From the NCBI GenBank assembly GCA_009929275.1, contig SAAW01000004.1, positions 1 through 57,306 of the forward strand: a DNA stretch of 57,306 nucleotides. Direction: 5' to 3'. The stretch comes from Clostridia bacterium. Its GTDB lineage: Bacteria; Bacillota; Clostridia; Christensenellales; UBA1242. The notes below the pieces were generated by a model. It was not told the origin of the DNA, made no database searches, and saw only the letters and a program-made list of their open reading frames with translations. The position numbers and the translations under genes were made by a program. Shown piece after piece: positions 29,736 to 55,632 of this stretch; position 1 is the stretch's first letter, and the number at the start of each line of letters is the position of its first letter.

Positions 29736-29749
29736 AAATGTTTGAATGT

Positions 29750-29763
29750 AGAACAAAAGTTTG
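29750..29763 (+). promoter_or_regulatory. LexA (Cheo/SOS) box upstream of recA
   Basis: AGAACAAAAGTTTG compared with the Firmicute consensus CGAAC-N4-GTTCG (GAAC-N4-GTTT). It lies 31 nt upstream of the recA -35. Confidence 0.6.
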
Positions 29764-29793
29764 ATAATTTTTTATAAAATTTGATTTTTTCTT

Positions 29794-29821: not shown

Positions 29822-29858
29822 CTAATTATAAAATTTGACGAATATAAAAGGAAAAATT

Positions 29859-30854
29859 ATGGATAAGGAAAAAAATGTTGAACAGGCAATTTTGCAGATT
29901 GAAAAACAATTTGGCAAAGGTTGCATTATGAAACTTGGCGAACAGCCAATGGAAAAAGTAGACGTCATTCCCACTGGGTGTTTGGTTCTCGACAGTGCTC
30001 TGGGCATTGGCGGAGTGCCTCGTGGCAGAATTATTGAGATTTATGGGCCAGAATCTTCTGGGAAGACAACCGTTGCTTTGCACCTCATTGCACAGGCACA
30101 AAAACTTTCAGGAACAGCGGCGTTTATCGATGCGGAACATGCTTTGGACCCCGTTTATGCGGGCAATCTTGGCGTTGACCTCGATGAACTCTATGTCTCT
30201 CAACCCGACAATGGCGAGCAGGCACTTGACATCTGTGAAACGCTTGTGAAAAGCGGTGCGTTTGACATCGTTGTCGTCGATTCTGTGGCTGCACTCACTC
30301 CAAAAGCGGAGATTGAGGGTGAGATGGGCGATAGTTTTATGGGACTGCAAGCAAGACTTATGAGTCAGGCTTTGAGAAAACTCGCAGGCATAACAAACAA
30401 AAGTAAATCTTGCGTTGTATTCATCAATCAACTTCGCGACAAAATCGGCGTTATGTTTGGTTCACCAGAGACGACAACAGGCGGAAAGGCTCTCAAATTT
30501 TACGCAAGCGTTCGACTTGACGTCAGAAAAATCGACACCATCAAAGAGGGAAGCGATATGGTGGGCAATCGAACTAGGATTAAAGTGGTTAAAAACAAAC
30601 TTGCGCCACCTTTTAAGACTGCTGAATTTGACATTATTTATGGCAAGGGCATTTCAAACGTGGGGTGCATATTAGATTTGGCAGTGGAACATAATATTAT
30701 TGACAAAAGTGGCTCTTGGTTTGCATATAAAGGCGAAAAAATTGCTCAAGGAAAAGAAAATGTGAAAGTTTATCTTGAGAAAAATCCGCAGGTGTGCGAG
30801 GAAATTGAAAAATTAGTGAAAGACGCAATTCAAAATCCAACAAAAAAAGACTGA
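29859..30854 (+). CDS. recA: recombinase RecA
   Basis: ATG at 29859 after AAAGGAAAAA (TTG 29835 is an alternative). Walker [44 protein letters not shown]. Confidence 0.97.
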
Positions 30855-34096: not shown

Positions 34097-34402
34097 TTAA
34101 AGATTAAGTTTTTGAAAAAAATATTTTCTTATATCGCTTGGAAGTGTGTCCACCGCTTGCCGAAGAAGAAGTTTGTCGCTTCCTGAAAGGAAAAGACTCT
34201 CAAGTGAAAAATTTTTTTCTATGCCAATGCCTCCATTCCTTCCTGGTTTAGTGAAGGTTGGAATGCCCGCACTTTCAAGTTCCGAAAGATATCGAAAAAC
34301 AGTGCGAGTGGAAATCTCAAATTTATTTGCCACCTCTTTTGCAGGCACTATATGATGTTTGTTCAGTTCCAAAAGGACTGCAAATCCAAGATATATTTTC
34401 AT
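34097..34402 (-). CDS. small HTH_11/DeoR-N-type transcriptional regulator (YafY N-terminal-like, no WYL domain)
   Basis: SD AGAGGGGA. 101 aa. AKEVANKFEISTRTVFRYLSELESAGIP winged-HTH signature. Confidence 0.7.
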   Translation of the reverse strand: MKIYLGFAVLLELNKHHIVPAKEVANKFEISTRTVFRYLSELESAGIPTFTKPGRNGGIGIEKNFSLESLFLSGSDKLLLRQAVDTLPSDIRKYFFQKLNL

Positions 34403-34480: not shown

Positions 34481-34520
34481 ATTATACAATATATTTATTT
34501 ACAAGTCAAACATATGTTCG
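34481..34520 (-). promoter_or_regulatory. near-consensus promoter with overlapping LexA box (minus strand)
   Basis: Minus strand reads CGAACATATGTTTGACT-N17-TATAAT. LexA box at 34507-34520, -35 TTGACT at 34504-34509, -10 TATAAT at 34481-34486. Confidence 0.65.
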
Positions 34521-34659
34521 ACAGTATTTTTCTTTTTTAATTTTTCTTTAAACTCGTTTAAATTTGTATATAATATTATTATAAAAAAATTGATATAATT
34601 TTTGGAATTTACAAAATTTGTGGTAATATTTAGATTATAAAAAGAGATGAAAGATAAAA

Positions 34660-44926: not shown

Positions 44927-45580
44927 ATGAACTACGAATTAATGGAAAACAACAAAGTTTTTTTAAAAGGAGTTGTGTCGTCTGAGCCGAAGTTTAGCCA
45001 CGAAGTGTTTGGCGAGGGTTTTTATGAATTAGACTTAAAAGTGAAAAGGCTTTCGGATAATTTTGATGTGGTGCGGGTCACCGTTTCCGAAAGACTTCTT
45101 TCAAACGAAGATTTTGCACTTGGGAAATTAGTTGCTATCAAAGGGCAATTTAGGAGTTATAACAAAATTTGCGAAGGGAAAAGTAAACTGCTTTTGACTG
45201 TATTTGTCAGGGAAGTAATTGATTTTGACGACACGATGAACCCAAATATTGTGGAACTCAGCGGTTATGTTTGCAAAGAGCCAATTTTTAGGACGACGCC
45301 TTTTGGCAGAGAAATTTGTGATGTTTTGGTGGCGGTGAACAGAGCATATAATAAGTCGGACTATCTCCCTTGTATTGCTTGGGGGCGAAATGCCAGATTT
45401 GTGAAGTCCATTAAAGTGGGCGAGAAAGTGGACATAATTGGCAGAATTCAAAGTAGAGAATATCAAAAAAAGTTGAATGAAAACGAAGTTTTGACAAAGA
45501 CTGCATATGAGATTTCTCTCAACAAAATTAGAGTGGAAAATATGGAAAATTTCATTGAAAATGACGGGCAGTTGGCTTGA
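44927..45580 (+). CDS. tandem two-OB-fold SSB-like protein
   Basis: SD GGAGGA. Two internally homologous ~100-aa halves (VFLKGVVSSEPKF...IKGQFRSY and VELSGYVCKEPIFRTT...IIGRIQSREY) with an SSB/PriB-like pattern. No canonical acidic D-D-D-I-P-F tail. Confidence 0.6.
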   Translation: MNYELMENNKVFLKGVVSSEPKFSHEVFGEGFYELDLKVKRLSDNFDVVRVTVSERLLSNEDFALGKLVAIKGQFRSYNKICEGKSKLLLTVFVREVIDFDDTMNPNIVELSGYVCKEPIFRTTPFGREICDVLVAVNRAYNKSDYLPCIAWGRNARFVKSIKVGEKVDIIGRIQSREYQKKLNENEVLTKTAYEISLNKIRVENMENFIENDGQLA

Positions 45581-45632
45581 AAAATACTTGAAAATAAAAT
45601 AAAGTTTACCTTTTAAACATTTTTTTAAAATT

Positions 45633-45661
45633 ATATCCCTTTTATAATGGGATATTTTTTT
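45633..45661 (+). terminator. intrinsic terminator after the SSB-like gene
   Basis: Perfect stem ATATCCC / GGGATAT, 9-nt loop, T6. Confidence 0.8.
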
Positions 45662-45727
45662 ATACTAATAAAAAAATTAAAAAATTTAGAAAATAATTAA
45701 AGATGACACATTATGTCAACATAAAGG

Positions 45728-45750
45728 TGATAATATCGAACATATGTTTG
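45728..45750 (+). promoter_or_regulatory. extended -10 promoter with abutting LexA box
   Basis: TGaTAATAT (45728-45736) is followed immediately by CGAACATATGTTTG (45737-45750), which matches 13/14 of CGAACATATGTTCG and covers the expected transcription start. Confidence 0.55.
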
Positions 45751-46014
45751 AAACAGTAAAAAAATTTTGAAATAATTTTAATTTATCTTTTAAAATATTT
45801 TCGACAAAATTCGACAAAACTCAATCTTTCATTATATTTGAGAAAAAGAGTCAAAAATAATTAAAATAGTTTTTAAAGATATTTTAAAAAATTATTCAAA
45901 ATTATGTCATCAAGTCTTGACTTTGCGCATTTTAGTATCTTAAACTGATTGTGTCAAAGCAAAAATTTGCTTATTTTGAACAAATTATAAATTATTTTAA
46001 AAGGAAAATCTTTT

Positions 46015-46554
46015 ATGGAAATGATGAATTTTGAAGTAAAATCTTTGCTTGCAATTTATAATCTTATTCCGCAAGTCGCGGAGTCGATTGACAAGTTGGT
46101 GAGGACGCGTGCAAGTTGCTCGTGTGTGCAGGAGGTCGAAAATGGGGTGGAAAGGCAAATGGAGTCTATCATAAAACTTACCATGCAAAAAGTTAATTTG
46201 ATTAATCTAAAAATCCTCGCCGATGAAACTCTTTGTGAGATGCCTCCAAGACTCTCAAAATTGGTGATTGCGAGGTGTATAGACAAAATGGACATCAATT
46301 TCCTTGCAAGCACTCTTGGCATTAGCGTGCGGGACACATACAGAAAAATTAAGAACGCTTTGCAAGAGTTTAAGCGAGTTTTCCTCAAAATTGTTTTAAA
46401 AAACAAAAAAGTCTGGGACAAGATTGTTAAGAATTTCTTTTGGTTTGACGTGCTTGAAAAGATTAATAAGTTTGAAGATGAGGGCGGTGGGGTTTCTATC
46501 TGTCCAAAATTTGTTTGTAAGATGATTTTGCAAAAATTGAGAAAAATTGTTTAG
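46015..46554 (+). CDS. sigma-70 region-4-like HTH protein (candidate ArpU/RinA-type late-gene activator)
   Basis: 179 aa. LCEMPPRLSKLVIARCIDKMDINFLASTLGISVRDTYRKIKNALQEF resembles sigma region 4 / ArpU-family HTH. It lies upstream of the packaging genes, as phage late activators do. Confidence 0.45.
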   Translation: MEMMNFEVKSLLAIYNLIPQVAESIDKLVRTRASCSCVQEVENGVERQMESIIKLTMQKVNLINLKILADETLCEMPPRLSKLVIARCIDKMDINFLASTLGISVRDTYRKIKNALQEFKRVFLKIVLKNKKVWDKIVKNFFWFDVLEKINKFEDEGGGVSICPKFVCKMILQKLRKIV

Positions 46555-47351
46555 AGAGAATCGTCATAATAATCTTGGATTTGCTTTATTGTTTGAGGCT
46601 TTGAGTGCTTTTTTATACTGCTTGATTTTTGCTCTAGTTTGAATGGTTTGAAAAGGAGATATATCAAAAATAGCGCAGGAAATATAAGTAGAAATAGCAC
46701 CAAAATTTTCAGCCCCGAAGTCATTTCCACAAGATTATAGAGATATGAGTCGTCGTCTTCAAAGGGATTTGAAACATATGTCACCACTTCGGTGTTTAAA
46801 CTTACTGTGGAAGAAGTGTCGCAAAGCCCTTCATAAAGGTAGCCAAAAGTGTCGTTTACATTGCAATAATACCAAGTTGTGCCTCGTTCGCTCACCATTT
46901 CTTCGCCAGAGATTGCCCCATAAAAATTGGCTTGTTGGTGCAGGTCAACTCTTGTTGTCACTGTCCCATTTATTGAAGATGGAGTTGAATAGACATTTCT
47001 GCCGTCGCTTGAAAACACCCAAAAAGTGAAGTTTTCTAAAAAAGGATTTTCGGGCGTCTCGGCAACGGGGGACACTTCATCTTTCAAAACATACCCGACA
47101 AGGTCGCGATATTGTGCTTTATAAAAATAGTCATTAAAATTTGACAGCAGAAGAACAAAATAACTTTCAGGGATAACGAAAAGTGCGTTGTCGCTTATGT
47201 TTCTTTGCGGGAAAGAATAGAAATAGGTGGATGAATTTTCCACTCTTGCATAGGCATAGGTTGTGAGGGAATTCGCTTTGGCAGAGGCTGGTATGTTGCC
47301 ATAAAAAAAGAATAAAAAACAAAAAACGAAAAAAGACATTATGAATTTCAA
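46551..47351 (-). CDS. secreted, membrane-anchored protein with two SH3b-like repeats
   Basis: TTG start 7 nt after AAGGAG. Signal peptide (FFYGNIPASA), two Y..x..GYV/GYLY SH3b-like modules, a C-terminal TM and a charged tail. Confidence 0.6.
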   Translation of the reverse strand: MKFIMSFFVFCFLFFFYGNIPASAKANSLTTYAYARVENSSTYFYSFPQRNISDNALFVIPESYFVLLLSNFNDYFYKAQYRDLVGYVLKDEVSPVAETPENPFLENFTFWVFSSDGRNVYSTPSSINGTVTTRVDLHQQANFYGAISGEEMVSERGTTWYYCNVNDTFGYLYEGLCDTSSTVSLNTEVVTYVSNPFEDDDSYLYNLVEMTSGLKILVLFLLIFPALFLIYLLFKPFKLEQKSSSIKKHSKPQTIKQIQDYYDDSL

Positions 47352-47428
47352 AGTCGTTTCTCCTTTTAAAAAGAATAAAACATATCATTTTAAAATTAAT
47401 AACTTTTATTGTTGAATTGTGGGTGAAA

Positions 47429-48850
47429 ATGAAAGAAAAACTGGAAGCATTAAACAAAATTTTTAAAATACTTAAAATTAGAAAAAACAATAATAAACTT
47501 AAAACATATAATGCTGGCGAAAAAAAACACGAAAAACAGATTGCGTTTCACAAATGTCCCAAAAAAAATAGGTGGGTGTTTGGCGGGAATAGGACGGGCA
47601 AAACGGAATGCGGTGCAGTGGAAACTGTCTATCTGGCACGTGGTTGTCACCCTTACAGAAAGGTTGAAGGTGCAACGGAAGGCTGGGTGGTGAGTTTGTC
47701 GCGTCAGGTGCAAAGAGATGTGGCGCAGAGAAAGGTTTTGTTCTATTTGAACAAAGATTGGATTGAAGAAATTGTGATGAACGAGGGTAGAAAAGACTTC
47801 CCCGAAAATGGAATAATTGATTATATTTTGATTAAAAATGAGTTTGGGACGACTAGCAAGATTGGCTTTAAGAGTTGCGATCAAGGCAGAGAAAAATTTC
47901 AAGGAACGGGGCTGAACTATGTCTGGTTTGACGAGGAGCCACCCGAAGAAATTTATGTTGAGTGTAAGATGAGAGTGCTTGACAAGTGCGGTATTATTTT
48001 CGGCACAATGACTCCGCTTAAAGGCTTGACTTGGGTCTATGACACAATATTTTTGAATGAGAGAAGCGACGAAGAGGTGTGGTTTTGCCAAATGGAATGG
48101 CGAGACAACCCTTTTTTGAATGAGAGAGAGATTGAAAGTTTTGAACATAGTTTGTCCAAAGAAGATTTGGAAGCACGAAAATACGGGCGTTTTGTGGGCA
48201 CGCAGGGGCTTGTGTATAAGGAATTTGATGAGAGAGTAAATGTTATTGAGCCTTTTAATATACCAAAAGAATGGTTTGACAATATGTCCATCGACCCTGG
48301 GCTAAACAATCCGCTTTCTTGTCATTGGTATGCCGTGGATTATGATGGGAATGTGTTTGTGGTGGCGGAATATTTTCAGAAAAATAAAGACATTGATTAT
48401 CACGCAAATGAAATTAAAAAAATTTGCGAAAGACTTTCTTGGCACAAAACAAGTGCTGGAAATTTCGAGTCGCTCATCGACAGTGCGGCAAATCAACGCA
48501 CTCTAAATGGCGTTAGAAGCGTGGCAGAACTCTTTTGCGAAAGGGGAATAATGGTGAATACAAAAGTGAATAAGGATTTGTTTGCTGGCATTTCTGTCGT
48601 GAAAAGTTATCTCAAAAATGAACAAGGACAAGCCCGACTTTTCATTTTTAGCACTTGCGTTAATCTCATAAGAGAGATGAAAACATACTTTTGGGGCGAC
48701 GGCGACAATCCTGTGAAGAAAGACGACCATTGCCTCGACGAACTTAGATATTATCTTATGTCAAAGCCACAAGCACGAGAGCGAAAAAAAAGCGAGATTG
48801 AGAAACATAAGGAAAAGTTGATTAGGCAAAAACGAAGGAATAATTTTTGA
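47429..48850 (+). CDS. terL: phage terminase large subunit
   Basis: Walker A GGNRTGKTE, Walker B LNYVWFDEEP, nuclease-domain motifs SIDPG and DDHCLDELRYY. ATG at 47429 (TTG 47417 is an alternative). Confidence 0.85.
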   Translation: MKEKLEALNKIFKILKIRKNNNKLKTYNAGEKKHEKQIAFHKCPKKNRWVFGGNRTGKTECGAVETVYLARGCHPYRKVEGATEGWVVSLSRQVQRDVAQRKVLFYLNKDWIEEIVMNEGRKDFPENGIIDYILIKNEFGTTSKIGFKSCDQGREKFQGTGLNYVWFDEEPPEEIYVECKMRVLDKCGIIFGTMTPLKGLTWVYDTIFLNERSDEEVWFCQMEWRDNPFLNEREIESFEHSLSKEDLEARKYGRFVGTQGLVYKEFDERVNVIEPFNIPKEWFDNMSIDPGLNNPLSCHWYAVDYDGNVFVVAEYFQKNKDIDYHANEIKKICERLSWHKTSAGNFESLIDSAANQRTLNGVRSVAELFCERGIMVNTKVNKDLFAGISVVKSYLKNEQGQARLFIFSTCVNLIREMKTYFWGDGDNPVKKDDHCLDELRYYLMSKPQARERKKSEIEKHKEKLIRQKRRNNF

Positions 48851-48871
48851 AAGTAAAAAAAGGAAAAAAAA

Positions 48872-49168
48872 ATGGAAATTGAAAAAAATTTTGATAAAAA
48901 TTTAAAAAATAAAAATATCATCTTAACTTCACTTTTTGATTTGGCAAAAGGGTGTATTTTGAAAGAAAAGACAGAAGATTTTGTGACAGATTTGGAGGGA
49001 AACATCAGCCTTAAAAATAGAAAAATTGTGAGAAAACAACTTGCCCCAGATTTGCAAGCGATAAAAGTTTTAATGGACCTTAAAATTCACGAAGACTTTG
49101 AAGAAATGACAGATGAACAACTTCAAAAAGAAAAAGAAAGACTGCTTGAAGAAATTAAAAATTGTTAA
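48872..49168 (+). CDS. hypothetical small protein (possible small-terminase remnant or accessory)
   Basis: 98 aa, SD AAAGGAAAAA. The segment KQLAPDLQAIKVLMDLK is faintly reminiscent of the small-terminase C-terminal P-D-x-x-A-x-x-F/W-L motif. This is a memory-based, weak resemblance. Confidence 0.5.
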   Translation: MEIEKNFDKNLKNKNIILTSLFDLAKGCILKEKTEDFVTDLEGNISLKNRKIVRKQLAPDLQAIKVLMDLKIHEDFEEMTDEQLQKEKERLLEEIKNC

Positions 49169-49204
49169 AAATTTAAAAAAGGTTTTTATAAAAGAGGAGA
49201 AAAA

Positions 49205-50779
49205 ATGAAGAAAAATAAAAAAGAAGAATTTGTGGAGGACTTGGTTGAGGCTGTAAAGTTGGACTTTGAAAACAGACAAAAGGAGAGAAAAAGTTATGAG
49301 GCAGAATGGAAACTTAACAGCAATTTTTATGGCGGAAATCAATATGTTGGGATTAATGCGATGAATGATTTGGTGAAAATTCCAAAAGAATTTTTCTGGC
49401 AAGAAAGGCAAGTCTTCAATCACATTGAGCCTATCGTCGAATCTCGCCTTGCAAAACTCACAGCAATAAGGCCAGAGATGGAAGTTATGCCTGCAAGCAA
49501 CAATGAAAGTGACATAAAAACGGCAAATATTTCAAGGGACATTTTAAAAAGCGTGTATGAAAAACTTAATCTTTCATCTGTCATTTCAAAGGCGACAATT
49601 TGGAGCGAGATCACAGGCACGAGTTTTTACAAAATAACTTGGAACAATTTTGCTGGCAAAAAAGTGTTTTCAAAAAATGACAAAACAATTTTTGAGGGAG
49701 AAGTGGAAGTTGTCCCTGTGTCGCCTTTTGAGATTTATCCCGACAGCAGTAGCAATGAAAATGTGGACGATTGCGAAAGCATAATTCACGCAAAAAGTTA
49801 TAGCACAAAAATGATTAAAAACATTTGGAAAGTGGACGTGCAAGGAAGCGACATTAACGAAATGAGCCTCACAGACAGTGCTCGTGAGGATTGCGTCAAA
49901 CATTCGCAAGCAGTTGTGATTGAAAGATATGAGGCCCCAAATGAGGAATGTCCGAACGGTCGGTTGGTAATAGTTTGCGGTGATAATCTGCTATATTTAG
50001 GCGAACTTCCGTTCAAAAACGGTGTGGACGGGAAGAGGGTTTTTCCGTTTGTGAAGCAAGTGTGTTGTAAAAGGCCGGGTTGTTTTTGGGGAAAAAGTGT
50101 CATAGACAAAATCATTCCAGTGCAACGAGCATACAACGCTCTTAAAAACAGAAAGCATGAATATCTAAACAGAATTAGTATGGGTGTTTTGACGGTGGAG
50201 GACGGAAGTGTCGACACAGAAAGTTTGGAACAAGAGGGGTTGCAAGCAGGCAAAATTTTGGTGTATAGACAAGGCTCGGAGCCACCAAAATTTTTGGCGG
50301 AAGAGACTCTTTCAGGTGACTTTGAAAACGAGGAAAAAAGACTGCTTTCTGAATTTAATGAAATCAGCGGAGTGAATAGCATCTTAACTTCAAACATAAG
50401 TTCACAAACAATAAGTGGAACGGCACTTGAACTTTTGATTGAACAAAGCACTTCAAGGTTAAGTTCTTCTGCCAATGAAATTGAAATGGCGGTTAAAAAT
50501 TTGGCAAAAATAATCCTTAGACTATATAAACAATTTGCAGTCGTGCCGAGAATTTTGAGATTGTCAAACTCTGAAAAAGAATTGTCTTTTTGGAAAAATT
50601 CTGACCTTGGGCAAGACGATATTCAATTTTTGAGCGACAGTGCCACAGAAGAAAGCCTTGCCTCAAAAAGAAGCAACATTTTAAAACTTTTGTCGTCGGG
50701 TGTGTTGCACAACAACGACGGAAAACTCGATGATAGTGTGAAGTTAAAAATTGCCACTTTGTTTGGCATTAATTTATAG
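49205..50779 (+). CDS. phage portal protein
   Basis: 524 aa directly after terL. N-terminal pattern WKLNSNFYGGNQY...VFNHIEPIVESRLAKLTAIRPEMEVMPAS...D is typical of portals. SD AGAGGAGA. Confidence 0.8.
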   Translation: MKKNKKEEFVEDLVEAVKLDFENRQKERKSYEAEWKLNSNFYGGNQYVGINAMNDLVKIPKEFFWQERQVFNHIEPIVESRLAKLTAIRPEMEVMPASNNESDIKTANISRDILKSVYEKLNLSSVISKATIWSEITGTSFYKITWNNFAGKKVFSKNDKTIFEGEVEVVPVSPFEIYPDSSSNENVDDCESIIHAKSYSTKMIKNIWKVDVQGSDINEMSLTDSAREDCVKHSQAVVIERYEAPNEECPNGRLVIVCGDNLLYLGELPFKNGVDGKRVFPFVKQVCCKRPGCFWGKSVIDKIIPVQRAYNALKNRKHEYLNRISMGVLTVEDGSVDTESLEQEGLQAGKILVYRQGSEPPKFLAEETLSGDFENEEKRLLSEFNEISGVNSILTSNISSQTISGTALELLIEQSTSRLSSSANEIEMAVKNLAKIILRLYKQFAVVPRILRLSNSEKELSFWKNSDLGQDDIQFLSDSATEESLASKRSNILKLLSSGVLHNNDGKLDDSVKLKIATLFGINL

Positions 50780-50792
50780 AAGGAGAAAAAAA

Positions 50793-51302
50793 ATGAATGA
50801 TGAAAATTTGGAACAACTAGAAAATTCGGAAATTGAAACTGAAAATGACCTTGAAAAAACGCAATTTGATGGCTCCAAAAAAGACGAGCAAATGTCTTTT
50901 TTAGGCAAGTTTAAAGATGCACAAAGTCTCTTTGTTGCCTATAATAATTTGCAAAGTGACTACACCAGAAAGTGTCAGGCACTATCTTCATTGCAAAGGA
51001 AATTTAAGGATAAGATTGACGAATTAAGTCCTGAAAATTTTGAGAAAAGCGGTGAAGAAAAAATTGTGAAAGAAAAGTTGTCAACTCTCGAAAAGGACAC
51101 ACTTTTACAAGAATACATATTTTCAAATGAGGACCTTAAAAGCAAAATTTTGACAAAATATTTTGATGAAATTTATTTGCCAAAAAGCCCAAAGTTGATC
51201 AGTGGCGACAGGGGAAGTAACCCAATTTTGTCCCCGATATCAAAACCAAAAACTTTGGAGCAAGCACAGAGCCTTGTTAGAGATATGTTCGACAAAAAAT
51301 AA
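50793..51302 (+). CDS. phage scaffolding protein
   Basis: ATG at 50793 after AGGAGAAAAA. Acidic coiled-coil protein with FKDAQSLFVAYNNLQSDYTRKCQ motif. Lies between portal and capsid. Confidence 0.6.
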   Translation: MNDENLEQLENSEIETENDLEKTQFDGSKKDEQMSFLGKFKDAQSLFVAYNNLQSDYTRKCQALSSLQRKFKDKIDELSPENFEKSGEEKIVKEKLSTLEKDTLLQEYIFSNEDLKSKILTKYFDEIYLPKSPKLISGDRGSNPILSPISKPKTLEQAQSLVRDMFDKK

Positions 51303-51391
51303 ACTTTTTGGAAATGTTTTATATTTTACAATTATTTTCAAAAAGACTTTTTGTTATTTTAAAAATAATATAAAAAAAAGGAAAAATAAAA

Positions 51392-52558
51392 ATGGTAACA
51401 TTAACAACTGCAGAGAACGCTCTTAAAAGCGTTTATCTCAATGTTTTGAGCGAACAATTAAACATAAACGCAAATGCTTTTTTGTCAAAAATTAAGCAAA
51501 CAAGCAAAGATGTTTTTGGAAAAGAAATCATAAAACTTGCACCTTATGGATTAAACGGCGGGATCGCTGCTTTAAGCGAAACGGGAACTCTCCCAACTGC
51601 AAGCGGACACAATTTTTTGCAATTTAAAACAAGTCTTAAAAATCTCTATGGCAAAATCTGTCTTTCAGACAAAGCAATTCGTGCAAGTGCATCAAACACT
51701 GGTGCTTTTGTGAATTTGCTTAATGATGAGATGGAAAGCCTCATAAAATCGAGTGCTTTCAATCTTGGAAGAATGATTTATGGCGATGGCACAGGACTTC
51801 TTGCCACAGCAACTGTGACAGAAACAGTTGTCACTTTTGACACTGTGAAAAGTATGGTGGAAGGAATGAAAGTGGACGTCTTTAACAGCGCAACTCCCGT
51901 TGCTCTTGGCGCAACTATAACCTATGTGGATAGACAAGCAAAAAAAGTTACTTTTGACGCAGAGATTGCTTTTGTCACAGGCTACACTGTGTTTGCAAGT
52001 GCTTCAAAGGGCAATGAAATCACAGGTATAAAAAGATTGTTTGACAAAACAGAAGCAAACAAATTGCTTTATGGTGTGGACAGGACAGACTATGCTTGGC
52101 TCTATCCATACATTAACTTAAACGGCGGAAGTGACAAAGACATAACCGACGCTATGATTCAAAACGCTATTAACAGCATTGAAGAAGAAACTGGTGCACA
52201 GCCAGACTTCATTGCTGTGTCAGGGGACGTGAGAACGGCATATCAAACATATCTGAACACAAACCGAAGAAATATTGACATAGCCACCCTTGCAGGTGGA
52301 TATAAGGCAATGACGTATGCGGGAATCCCTGTTGTTTATGAGAGATTTGTGGAAGACGGCGAAATGTATTTTTTAAATTCAAAAGATTTCAATCTTCATC
52401 AACTTTGCGATTGGGAATGGTTGGAGGGCGAAAATGGAAACATTTTAGTTCCAAGTTCAACAACCCCAACATATTCTGCAACGCTTGTGAAATATGCCGA
52501 ACTAATCTGCGACAGACCTGGTGCACAAGGAAAAATCTCAAACATTAAGTCGGTTTAA
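51392..52558 (+). CDS. phage major capsid protein (presumed HK97 fold)
   Basis: 388 aa in the canonical position after the scaffold gene. Composition is typical of major capsid proteins. No protease gene is present. Confidence 0.75.
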   Translation: MVTLTTAENALKSVYLNVLSEQLNINANAFLSKIKQTSKDVFGKEIIKLAPYGLNGGIAALSETGTLPTASGHNFLQFKTSLKNLYGKICLSDKAIRASASNTGAFVNLLNDEMESLIKSSAFNLGRMIYGDGTGLLATATVTETVVTFDTVKSMVEGMKVDVFNSATPVALGATITYVDRQAKKVTFDAEIAFVTGYTVFASASKGNEITGIKRLFDKTEANKLLYGVDRTDYAWLYPYINLNGGSDKDITDAMIQNAINSIEEETGAQPDFIAVSGDVRTAYQTYLNTNRRNIDIATLAGGYKAMTYAGIPVVYERFVEDGEMYFLNSKDFNLHQLCDWEWLEGENGNILVPSSTTPTYSATLVKYAELICDRPGAQGKISNIKSV

Positions 52559-52593
52559 CAAAGAAATATTGTGAGAAACAATGGAGAGTCAAA

Positions 52594-52968
52594 ATGAAAA
52601 ATTATAGGATAGAAATTAAAAATGACGTGCTTTGCATTTCAAAAAGGATAAAGAAAATTGATAGGAATTATAAAATTTTTTTCAATCAAAATTCTGGGAA
52701 TTTTGAAGTGTGGCACAAAAAAGAACTATCACTTGTGTTGGGAAAAACACTGGACAATTTGGCTCTTTTAAAAACTCACAAAACAAACATCAGAAACTCA
52801 AAGACACTGCTTCAAAATATGGAAGAAACAAACGAAAAACTGAAAATGAATGAAAATGACGACCTTGAAAACAAAAATAAGGCCCTTCTTTCCAGTCTGC
52901 TTTCATATTTAGATAAAAAGTCTTGCGAAACTGATTTTAAAGATATTAACACGACAAAATGGTTTTAA
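52594..52968 (+). CDS. hypothetical phage-module protein
   Basis: SD GGAGAG. 124 aa, basic N-terminus and coiled-coil C-terminus. Confidence 0.55.
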   Translation: MKNYRIEIKNDVLCISKRIKKIDRNYKIFFNQNSGNFEVWHKKELSLVLGKTLDNLALLKTHKTNIRNSKTLLQNMEETNEKLKMNENDDLENKNKALLSSLLSYLDKKSCETDFKDINTTKWF

Positions 52969-52982
52969 AAAAGGAGAAAAAA

Positions 52983-53561
52983 ATGACTGTTTTAGAATTA
53001 TTAAAAAATGCAAGTTTTTATTTGAACTTGGACGATGAATTTGCTCCTTACTTCGACTCTTCTTCGGTCACTCCAAATGACGAAACAAAAAGAGAGTGGG
53101 GTAAAATGCTCTGTGCTTTCAATTCTCTCATCAAAAGCATCGCAACCGAAAGAATTCCTCTCACAAAAGAAGAAGAAATTGCGTTTGATTGCAACGGCGA
53201 ATTTTTGCTAAACACTCTTGCAGAAAAATTTCATTCCATTCAAACTATCACGGGCTACAGCGGTTTTGTGTTCGCAAGTTCTTCAAATGACGGAAAGTTA
53301 AAGTCGAATTACAAGGGACCTGCCGTCTTAAAATATGCTTATGTCCCAGCAGACTTTGTCGTTGAAGATGAAGTCAGCGTGTTTGATGGGGTGCTAAATG
53401 ATTTGGTCTATTCCTATGGAATTGCCTACATCTATTGTGAGATGTACGCACTTTATGACGACGCACAAATGTGGAAAGAAAAGTTTGAAAAGGCAATCAA
53501 TGATTGTATGAGTGGAGTTGTGCGGGAGCGGGTGATGAGAGTTAGAAGGTGGCTAAACTAA
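52983..53561 (+). CDS. head-tail connector (gp6-like)-type protein, putative
   Basis: ATG at 52983 after AAGGAGAAAAAA. The N-terminus MTVLELLKNASFYLNLDDE resembles the gp6-like connector opening (L..LK..LRIDxDD). 192 aa. Confidence 0.45.
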   Translation: MTVLELLKNASFYLNLDDEFAPYFDSSSVTPNDETKREWGKMLCAFNSLIKSIATERIPLTKEEEIAFDCNGEFLLNTLAEKFHSIQTITGYSGFVFASSSNDGKLKSNYKGPAVLKYAYVPADFVVEDEVSVFDGVLNDLVYSYGIAYIYCEMYALYDDAQMWKEKFEKAINDCMSGVVRERVMRVRRWLN

Positions 53562-53562
53562 A

Positions 53563-55038
53563 ATGACGAAAAAAAGTTACACTAAAAAAAGGCTTTTCAT
53601 CGACAATTTTTCTTCAATGCAAAACAAAGATAATAACGAATATGATCTCGAACTCTGTGAGCCAAAAACTTGCTTTAATGTGAAAGAAAATCTGGGAACT
53701 CTTGTGTGCACAAATGGGTTGATTCATCTAAAATTACCAATCTCACAAAGTTTTGTGTTTGAGACAAATATGAGAGAATTGTCTGGCATCACTTTTTCTA
53801 AAATTTGGCACTACAAATATTTTAGTCGCATAAACAACAGATACGAATATATTTTGGTGGCTTATGCAAGTGACAAAAAACTCTATTATACAAACATATT
53901 TTTTGCCGATGACTCTTTTCACAAAATTGACATCACCGTTAACTCCGAGCCTTCTGCGATAAACTTTATTGTTTCAGGCGACGATGTGATTGGCTTTTCT
54001 TCGCTGGAAGATGACTTTTTGGTGTGGTATTGCGATGCGAACCCCTATTCCGTTACAACTGCTCCAAGGTTTATATCGATATGTATGCACAAGCAAAGGT
54101 TGTTTGTCATAGACGCAGAAAACGACAATTTGGTGCGTTTCAATTCAAAAACTGACCCAATGGAATGGACAACTTCAAACGATGGGGAAGACGCGGGAAC
54201 GATTGAAATGAATGACTATAAGGGACACTTGAAAAATTTGCTCTCTTTTGGCGACTATGTATATGTTTTCAGAGATAATGGCATCTCAAAAATAATTTCA
54301 TATTCTTCCGATTCACTATATTCCGTGAGCAATGTCTATTCGAGCAGTAGAATAATCTATTGCTCCACGGCTTGTGTCTGCGAAGACAAAATATATTTTT
54401 TGCAAGAGGACGGACTTTATGAGTTTGATGGCTCAAAAGTTGAAAAAGTGGATTTGAAATTTTCATCAATGCTTAACGGGAACTCGCAGGAATTTGCTAA
54501 CACTTGTTTTTATGATGGGAAATTATATATTTCGTGCAAGTTGAATTTTGACGATAACACGACAGTAGGTTGCGAAAGTGGGTCGTTCAAAAACAATTGC
54601 CTTATGGAATTTGATCCAAAAACAAAAAAATATAACATCACTCGTGGCGTGGACATCTGTTGTATGATTGGCTTAACCGATTTGTTTGTGAATAAACTAA
54701 TTGTTTTGCAAAATAGCAGTTCTTTTCTTTGGCAACTTGATAAAACGGGGATTTTGCACAACACAGTGCTCCCAAAAAAATGGGAAAGCGGGAAGATAAC
54801 TTTAAGCAGTTATTCGACAAACAAAATCCTTAAAGAAATTAGACTGAAATGTTCTTGCAGTTGCAACATTAAAATCGAGTGTGAAAACAGAATCAAGACA
54901 TTTTCGCTTGTGAAAAGTGAAAAGATAACAAGACTAGTGTGTTTGCTTTCTGGGAAAGAGTTTAAACTGACTATTTCGTCAAATGATAACGAACTTAGTA
55001 TTTCAAATTTGGAGATGATTTTTATTGAAGAAAGTTAA
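53563..55038 (+). CDS. large beta-rich structural protein (candidate nozzle/tail/receptor-binding protein)
   Basis: 491 aa, starting 1 nt after the previous stop. Repeated hydrophobic-Tyr/Phe-Asp/Gly strand-turn patterns suggest a beta-propeller or beta-sandwich. No motif recognised. Confidence 0.5.
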   Translation: MTKKSYTKKRLFIDNFSSMQNKDNNEYDLELCEPKTCFNVKENLGTLVCTNGLIHLKLPISQSFVFETNMRELSGITFSKIWHYKYFSRINNRYEYILVAYASDKKLYYTNIFFADDSFHKIDITVNSEPSAINFIVSGDDVIGFSSLEDDFLVWYCDANPYSVTTAPRFISICMHKQRLFVIDAENDNLVRFNSKTDPMEWTTSNDGEDAGTIEMNDYKGHLKNLLSFGDYVYVFRDNGISKIISYSSDSLYSVSNVYSSSRIIYCSTACVCEDKIYFLQEDGLYEFDGSKVEKVDLKFSSMLNGNSQEFANTCFYDGKLYISCKLNFDDNTTVGCESGSFKNNCLMEFDPKTKKYNITRGVDICCMIGLTDLFVNKLIVLQNSSSFLWQLDKTGILHNTVLPKKWESGKITLSSYSTNKILKEIRLKCSCSCNIKIECENRIKTFSLVKSEKITRLVCLLSGKEFKLTISSNDNELSISNLEMIFIEES

Positions 55039-55138
55039 TAGAAAAACGAGTAAAAAAAAGGTGTTTTATGCAAAAATAATAAGGGAAGAAGACTTAAAAA
55101 ACGGCTTTAAAAAAATTCTAAACAGCAAGTAAAAAATT

Positions 55139-55357
55139 ATGTGGGACGAAATTTTCAAAATGGCTCTTTCAAACGGCATTTGGGCAGTTCTCTTTGTGGC
55201 ACTTTTGATTTTTCAACTAAAAGATAGTGCAAAAAGGGAAAAGAAATATCAGGAAACAATCGCAAAACTCAATTCTCACCTAGATTGCGTGGAAGACATT
55301 AAAGACGAAATCAAAGAAATACGCTCGGCAATCTTAAAAGGAGTGAAAAACAAATGA
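55139..55357 (+). CDS. BhlA/UviB-family holin-like protein
   Basis: 72 aa. NGIWAVLFVALLIFQLKDSAKREKKYQETI matches my recollection of the BhlA pattern (G.FAVLF..LL.Y..K.S.ERE.K). Single TM plus coiled coil. Confidence 0.65.
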   Translation: MWDEIFKMALSNGIWAVLFVALLIFQLKDSAKREKKYQETIAKLNSHLDCVEDIKDEIKEIRSAILKGVKNK

Positions 55358-55632
55358 ATAAAGACAAAAAATCACTGTCATTTTGGCTCGGATTTTCTTG
55401 CTTTGTTTTAGGGCTTTTGGAGACAATACTCTTGTCTTTTGGCATCGACTTTATCATAAATATCATCGTGGAAGGAGTGGCAATCTTGCTTTTTGTTCTC
55501 GTTTATTTTGGCGTGTTTAAAGCAAACGAGGAAGAAAACATTGAGGAAACTTATGAAAACATTAAAAGTTGCCTTAAAAAATCACTCAAAGACAAAGACA
55601 AAAGCCTTGATGACGACGAAAAAGAGGACTAG
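55354..55632 (+). CDS. two-TM small membrane protein with acidic tail (class-II-holin-like topology)
   Basis: ATGA overlap with the previous ORF, SD AAAGGAGTG. Two TM segments followed by a K/D/E-rich tail. Confidence 0.55.
   Translation: MNKDKKSLSFWLGFSCFVLGLLETILLSFGIDFIINIIVEGVAILLFVLVYFGVFKANEEENIEETYENIKSCLKKSLKDKDKSLDDDEKED

Follow-up and report, generated by a model that had tools for sequence, protein, structure and literature searches.

Organization of the locus

The window analyzed here is a whole contig (C59) of 57,306 nucleotides from a Clostridia bacterium of the order Christensenellales (UBA1242). The genome bin to which it belongs comprises 1.18 Mb, with 34% G+C and 95% completeness, and its close relatives are uncultured Christensenellales or Clostridia MAGs from animal and human guts. 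The locus contains, in order, genes for a polysaccharide deacetylase, a two-OB SSB-like protein, a regulator and a membrane protein, a series running from terL to a holin, a gene for a 92-aa protein and two flanking genes. The genes of the island proper (46015-55632) are the following.

46015..46554, plus strand: island regulator, 179 aa, with a sigma-70 region-4-like helix-turn-helix (PHROGs, PDB profile and fold)
46551..47351, minus strand: gene on the opposite strand that separates the regulator from terL; product of 266 aa, membrane or secreted (open reading frame)
47417..55632, plus strand: structural and lysis operon (Pfam and PHROGs matches; synteny)
47417-48850, plus strand: TerL, first gene of the structural operon
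49205-50779, plus strand: P22-type portal, with a 98-aa gene between TerL and portal
51392-52558, plus strand: major head protein, with a 183-aa gene between portal and head protein
55139-55357, plus strand: BhlA holin, after the 124-aa, 200-aa and 491-aa virion protein genes and before the 92-aa gene

The region upstream of the regulator, which is the main subject of this study, carries five further features.

45704..45718, unstranded: palindrome TGACA-N5-TGTCA (TGACACATTATGTCA), centered at about -32 from the predicted start of transcription
45728..45736, plus strand: extended -10 element TGaTAATAT of the distal promoter P1 (read from the sequence)
45736..45751, unstranded: predicted LexA operator TCGAACATATGTTTGA (core CGAAC-N4-GTTTG, 45737-45750), with the top matrix score in the genome
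45800..45816, unstranded: two tandem Spo0A-type 0A boxes, TTCGACA at 45800 and 45810 (10-bp spacing), in the leader
45917..45946, plus strand: putative proximal promoter-like site P2, TTGACT-18-TAAACT with ATGTCA in front (promoter scan)

The gene for the 266-aa protein is convergent with the regulator gene and divergent from terL, and no family match was found for its product. Since it occupies the same position in every relative that holds the region, it can be considered a part of the element. Because it separates terL from the regulator, terL has its own promoter region, which is short and weak-looking. Most relatives carry a TTGTC or ATGTC motif 6-8 nt 5' of the terL ribosome-binding site (upstream regions L029-L089), for which the sequence here is TTGTTG (47400-47416); this motif might be part of a late promoter or a translational signal. 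In several family-level relatives (L044, L046, L049, L053, L056, L061, L063 and others), the distance from terL to the portal gene is 4-5.5 kb, compared with 1.8 kb here, the difference being made up by additional DNA or an intein-like insertion that lies within terL or follows it.

Inheritance of the island

The locus order given above, both flanks included, is found in dozens of species, across which the identity of the head protein falls from 91% to 52%. The head protein occurs in 24 of the 27 other genomes of the genus, in all nine other genera of the family and in 10 of the 24 other families of the order, and is encoded by a single copy in nearly all genomes. The best phage match among 50,697 phage records shows 26-27% identity to it, against 52-91% within the host clade. 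When compared with the nearest species, the operon genes have dN/dS values of 0.04-0.30 (head protein, 0.06; 491-aa protein, 0.10; holin, 0.04), and the dS of island genes is similar to that of flanking host genes. A stop codon interrupts only two of about 50 head-protein matches.

No genes for an integrase, replication proteins or a CI-type repressor were found in the 45.6-57.3 kb interval, and neither obvious tail genes nor a recognizable endolysin were found in the cluster. The island is a vertically inherited, domesticated element and not a prophage. The sequence-only reading of this window, which preceded our analysis, had called it a phage-like island; the fixed locus, the single copy, the purifying selection and the lack of close phage relatives speak against a prophage. 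The same reading had offered SOS wiring as the explanation for the missing CI repressor, and this part of it falls away, since a vertically inherited element needs no special explanation for such an absence. Taken together, these features make the island look like a gene-transfer-agent (GTA)-like particle cluster.

The host SOS system and its LexA motif

The bin encodes one LexA (C47:2647-3267), recognized by the Pfam domains LexA_DNA_bind (PF01726) and Peptidase_S24 (PF00717). The protein has a VAAG cleavage site as well as GDSM and VKR catalytic motifs (corresponding to Ala-Gly, Ser and Lys, respectively). RecA is also encoded by the host, with its ORF at 29835-30854 of the window. In Firmicutes, the LexA (DinR) operator is the Cheo box, CGAAC-N4-GTTCG, which is located 5' of recA, lexA and uvrB in Bacillus subtilis.

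The lexA gene is preceded by an operator of its own, TAGAACATATGTTTGA, which overlaps its -35 element. Its upstream region carries TAGAACATATGTTTGACA, which overlaps a TTGACA -35 element and agrees with the 16-mer upstream of the island at 15 of 16 bases. The word GAACAWATGTTTGAC is present 5' of lexA in 11 of 12 related genomes. Motifs of the same type precede uvrB (C62) and recA, the latter within the window.

29749..29764, unstranded: recA LexA operator TAGAACAAAAGTTTGA, about 85 nt 5' of the ORF start at 29835, 18.5 bits

The sequence-only reading had noticed a weaker box at recA, and we located it as AGAACAAAAGTTTGA at 29749-29764, with 18.5 bits compared with 24.2 at the island site. Because the lexA, recA and uvrB sites and 11 of 12 relatives carry this motif, we conclude that the clade uses the classical Firmicute box. 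In the promoter-proximal half, the clade box prefers GTTTGA.

A LexA operator upstream of the island regulator

The box CGAACATATGTTTG at 45737-45750 directly adjoins the extended -10 element TGATAATAT (45728-45736), as had been described from the sequence. It agrees with the CGAAC-N4-GTTCG consensus at 13 of 14 bases and, as a 16-mer, with the host lexA operator at 15 of 16. The 1.18-Mb genome contains only four exact matches to CGAAC-N4-GTTYG. As also claimed earlier, the exact reverse complement of the 16-mer at 45736-45751 is found at 34506-34521. This pair did not arise by duplication, because the flanks differ and the shared word is no longer than an operator.

A scan of the whole genome with a LexA matrix had been proposed in the sequence-only reading as a check on the rarity of the site. 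We built a 16-nt weight matrix from the lexA operators of 11 relatives and the lexA, recA and uvrB sites of this genome, leaving out of the training set both the island site and the site upstream of a gene for an HTH_11 protein (see below). The sites at 45736 and 34506 nevertheless ranked first and second in the genome, with 24.2 of a possible 24.5 bits, followed by lexA (22.7 bits), uvrB (20.3 bits), one more intergenic site (18.7 bits) and recA (18.5 bits). Only 11 positions in the whole genome reach at least 14 bits, so that the motif is not a common one in AT-rich DNA. A one-mismatch scan confined to the window gave 11 matches where 6.2 were expected, which is not significant.

Conservation of the operator

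When the best matrix site within 450 nt 5' of the regulator is considered, 25 of 32 distinct species reach at least 14 bits. The majority of these boxes have scores of 21-24 bits and are 130-280 nt from the regulator start codon, and in 23 of 30 loci the box is at a fixed distance when measured from the downstream gene. The other 452 kb of the same loci contain about two comparable sites. In the nearest relative (G024), the box is identical at 16 of 16 positions, although neighboring genes have diverged to a dS of 0.4-1.4 and the intergenic sequence around the box is variable. Judged by its sequence and distribution, 45736-45751 is a genuine, conserved SOS operator.

The arrangement is not the same in all relatives. 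In one subgroup (G006, G008, G009, G011, G019 and G021), the box is found about 40 nt 5' of the conserved -10 element and thus off the start, so that the geometry of repression is not uniform, and the mode of repression in this subgroup may be different. In addition, the box is missing from seven species (six belong to this genus), which keep lexA with its operator, the SOS box of the HTH_11 gene and the island; LexA control is therefore dispensable. Inspection of upstream regions from which the box has been lost (L015, L019, L021, L022, L024, L025 and L029) showed that a (T/G)GACA-N5-TGTCA palindrome and the extended -10 element are kept, at only 40-140 nt from the regulator start codon.

Promoters and other elements of the leader

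A TGnTAttAT element, which becomes TATAAA-like in more distant genera, is found immediately 5' of the box in most species of the genus and family. This conserved extended -10-like element supports the promoter assignment made in the sequence-only reading. The predicted start of P1 transcription is near 45743, inside the LexA box. The rightward direction of P1 is clear because the upstream gene ends at 45580 and there is no leftward gene on offer. We also considered an arrangement like that at lexA and the HTH_11 gene, with the box overlapping a -35 element (TTGAAA at 45748, followed after 17 nt by AATAAT with a TG); it fits this genome only and was dropped in favor of the extended -10 because boxes of relatives that end in GTTCTAA do not fit it.

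The TTGACT block of P2 is conserved in the genus alignment, and among relatives a TTGACT-17/18-TAAAAT-like promoter is conserved 70-100 nt before the regulator. P2 could provide a LexA-independent source of regulator expression. The leader is AT-rich and contains 13 promoter-like sites compared with 4.2 expected. A terminator scan of the leader found none, and an Rfam search of 45500-47500 found no family.

The palindrome TGACA-N5-TGTCA occurs in two copies in the genome, of which the one considered here is the sole intergenic copy. A GACA-N5/6-TGTC motif precedes the regulator in 20 of 32 species, against a background of 0.028 per kb. In the sublineage lacking the LexA box, the palindrome is kept and is still 10-12 nt from the extended -10 element; it is therefore the older part of the promoter. 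Conservation in the 20 species and retention in the box-less sublineage support the earlier proposal that the palindrome is a second operator, and it probably binds a dedicated second factor. Several known types of site could be set aside for this motif: its spacings to the -10 element (21 and 10-11 nt) are wrong for an ordinary sigma-70 -35 element, it lacks the GG and GC expected of a sigma-54 site, and the half-site is TGTCA(A/T) and not the TGTCGAA of Spo0A, for which true 0A boxes are found elsewhere in the leader.

These 0A boxes are the sole intergenic tandem pair in the genome, and a gene for Spo0A is present on contig C122. In regulator leaders, 0A heptamers occur at 1.35 per kb compared with a background of 0.095 per kb (about 14-fold), and they are found in only about half of the species. 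The wider conservation of the palindrome and the presence of tandem 0A boxes suggest that one or more further regulators are involved, and possibly also Spo0A. On this comparative evidence, LexA appears as one of several inputs and as neither the sole nor the ancestral control.

The island regulator

The 179-aa product of 46015-46554 matches phrog_36, annotated as "transcriptional regulator" (E 7e-7). When a profile of 25 orthologues was compared with PDB, sigma-factor region 4 chains were matched, including SigF with an E value of 1.4e-3. The AlphaFold model of the regulator (pLDDT 84.8) was aligned by Foldseek to -35-binding sigma region 4 domains with an rmsd of 1.5-2 A over 55-68 residues. 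Orthologues share a conserved block, L-R-Y-I-D ... L-G-I-S-x-R-T-x-F-R-K, which we take to be typical of region 4.2. The gene has a dN/dS of 0.09 in comparison with the nearest species, and one homologue is present in 24 of the 27 other genomes of the genus and in seven of nine other genera of the family. Its profile and modeled fold indicate a sigma4-type DNA-binding protein, which would act either as an alternative sigma factor complete in itself or as an activator comparable to GafA and Xpf.

A second operator and other LexA-like sites

The reverse-complementary twin of the island box lies in front of another regulatory gene.

34506..34521, unstranded: second perfect LexA operator, overlapping the -35 element of a perfect TTGACT-17-TATAAT promoter on the minus strand
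34097..34402, minus strand: gene for a 101-aa HTH_11 / winged-helix regulator (Pfam HTH_11, E 7.6e-8)

The minus-strand promoter reads into the 101-aa HTH_11 gene, which was found in 23 of the 24 other genomes searched within the genus. A strong box in the -35-overlapping arrangement was found at this gene in 20 of 20 genomes of the genus. By these sequence criteria, the HTH_11 gene is a core SOS gene of the clade; that its product is linked to the island is a guess.

Additional LexA-like sites were observed before a XerD-like recombinase gene just upstream of lexA (C47:1448), before a gene for a 216-aa Cys-rich protein (C76:25883) and before a gene for a 295-aa acidic lipoprotein-like protein (C71:35567). 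The bin also includes a contig of 1477 bp (C120) that encodes a CI-like repressor of 202 aa, with HTH and S24 peptidase domains, divergent from a cro-like gene. We rejected this protein as a repressor of the island, as it is encoded on an unrelated contig together with its own cro-like partner and has different inverted-repeat operators; C120 represents either a piece of some other prophage or contamination introduced by binning.

Proposed mechanism and alternatives

We propose that the box is a functional LexA operator that blocks P1, and that the SOS response acts through the regulator on the phage-head, packaging and holin cluster. LexA bound at 45736-45751 would cover the P1 start and prevent transcription from it. 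When DNA damage stimulates LexA self-cleavage through RecA, P1 would be freed, and its transcript, consisting of a 265-nt leader followed by the regulator gene, would allow the sigma-region-4-like protein to be made. The regulator would then switch on the separately promoted operon from terL to holin, so that capsids would form, DNA would be packaged and cells would lyse. We infer three steps here, namely where transcription starts, that LexA represses it and that the regulator activates the late operon, and the connection between the regulator and the terL operon is drawn from two things, gene order and protein fold. Taken as a whole, we consider this scheme probable. It agrees with the suggestion in the sequence-only reading that the island is wired into the SOS regulon, for which the host LexA and RecA, the shared motif at lexA, recA and uvrB and the box in 25 of 32 species all speak.

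A different possibility is that the operator is real but controls no more than a minor or distal transcript, for example a leader RNA, while P2 together with the palindrome factor, Spo0A or growth phase dominates expression, in which case DNA damage would at most modulate the island. The conserved TTGACT-17/18-TAAAAT-like promoter 70-100 nt before the regulator, the box-less sublineage that retains both the palindrome promoter and the island, and the enrichment of 0A boxes in the leader are all in keeping with such an arrangement, as is the report that GTA-like particles of Faecalibacterium appear with lysis in late stationary phase and with no added DNA damage (PMC12946183). We regard it as unlikely, because there would be little reason for a box without influence on the only gene downstream to have stayed in place in 25 of 32 species while these diverged to family level; moreover, neither an Rfam family nor a terminator was found in the leader. 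It is still less probable, to the point of being very unlikely, that the island is an ordinary degraded prophage that has lost its repressor and that the box is left over from an antirepressor or early promoter once controlled by LexA. Such a history would account for the absence of integrase, replication, repressor and obvious tail genes and of a recognized endolysin, and it conflicts with the presence of a single copy at a fixed locus with constant gene order in dozens of species. Decay also predicts stop codons and patchy loss, whereas stops are present in only two of about 50 head-protein matches, every gene tested is under purifying selection and the dS equals that of the flanking host genes.

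That the box is a chance or neutral AT-rich sequence, or the site of another protein, with no SOS function, we consider scarcely credible. The region is very AT-rich, and within the window the one-mismatch count (11 versus 6.2 expected) would by itself leave room for such a view; however, the box is the best LexA-matrix site in the genome, is nearly identical to the lexA operator and is conserved in position across species against a background of about two sites in 452 kb. As to a site for another protein, the promoter of the bin's second S24 repressor, the one on C120, carries inverted repeats unlike this box. Beyond the proposed LexA operator scheme, one may speculate about a three-input switch, composed of LexA, the palindrome factor and Spo0A, that acts on an anciently domesticated podovirus-type GTA common to the whole family of reduced-genome gut Christensenellales; the cluster could then be the source of the Christensenellaceae packaging signals in human fecal VLPs, and the HTH_11 protein, whose gene has an identical operator, could be the partner that acts at the palindrome. 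We offer this wider picture tentatively and think it somewhat doubtful as it stands.

Relation to known systems

That LexA directly controls phage-derived elements is well established (colicins, tailocins, GIL01, PBSX), and the operator does not therefore represent a new mechanism: the kind of wiring is known, and it is this element and its hosts that have not been previously studied. With the Cheo box, the clade motif shares its consensus (13 of 14 bases), its location in promoters and the autoregulation of LexA, and the GTTTG half-site of the island box is also that of host lexA. It differs in the 3' half, GTTTGA, which also serves as the beginning of a TTGACA -35 element at two genes, lexA and the HTH_11 gene. 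Unlike the repair genes that are targets of Cheo boxes, the target here is the regulator of a phage-derived particle cluster.

PBSX of Bacillus subtilis is a GTA-like defective prophage with an Xre repressor, an ImmA-like protein (XkdA) and a sigma-like late factor (Xpf). Its xkdA gene is listed in the LexA/SOS regulon (PMC3896406). Like PBSX, the island is a chromosomally fixed particle element of a Firmicute with an SOS link, a sigma-related factor before the late genes and a lysis cassette. In contrast to PBSX, the cluster is only 9.6 kb long, has a P22-type portal and no long contractile tail module, and carries the box on the promoter of the activator. Neither an Xre-type repressor nor an ImmA/IrrE protease is encoded in the locus, in which the ORFs of 44927-47417 specify the SSB-like protein, the sigma4-like regulator and the membrane protein only. 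In the Bacillus thuringiensis tectivirus GIL01, LexA represses P1 of that virus together with the co-repressor gp7, and there is no CI-type repressor (PMC4551915, PMC6182141). The island resembles GIL01 in that host LexA is the predicted direct repressor of a key promoter of the element without a CI-like protein; however, GIL01 is an autonomous linear plasmid-prophage with replication genes, whereas the cluster lacks replication genes, is inherited chromosomally and has no close phage relative. Judged by its gene content, the cluster is a member of neither the GIL01 nor the PBSX type.

The FpGTA of Faecalibacterium is a 10.5-kb podovirus-type operon that encodes TerL, portal, scaffold, major capsid and conserved hypothetical proteins and is near-ubiquitous in its gut Clostridia lineage; no regulator or SOS link has been described for it (PMC12946183). 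The same study recorded GTA-like packaging from Christensenellaceae genomes and named no gene cluster or regulator for it (PMC12946183). The island is likewise an approximately 10-kb podovirus-like head and packaging operon in gut Clostridia. Comparison can also be made with the GTAs of alphaproteobacteria (RcGTA and that of Dinoroseobacter shibae), in which the effect of LexA is indirect or exerted via the CckA/CtrA network. LexA is part of the alphaproteobacterial GTA regulatory network (PMC6473078), and RcGTA is under the control of a dedicated activator, GafA, that has sigma-region-4-like features (PMC6363796, PMC9638019). A domesticated head-packaging cluster, a sigma-region-4-like regulator and a link to LexA are thus features in common; the island differs in having a consensus operator on the activator's own promoter, in its unrelated proteins and in its Gram-positive hosts.

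Implications

From the comparisons presented here, a LexA motif for the clade can be defined, together with an SOS regulon consisting of lexA, recA, uvrB, the gene for the small HTH_11 protein and the island. Through the operator, DNA damage becomes a testable inducing signal for a capsid and packaging cluster that is conserved, tail-poor and vertically inherited throughout the clade. The uncultured gut bacteria that carry it have genomes of about 1 Mb, which shed most accessory DNA yet kept these 10 kb under selection. DNA damage probably switches on the production of particles from the island. If the cluster is a GTA, antibiotics and genotoxic stress in the gut would trigger the packaging of host DNA and lysis.
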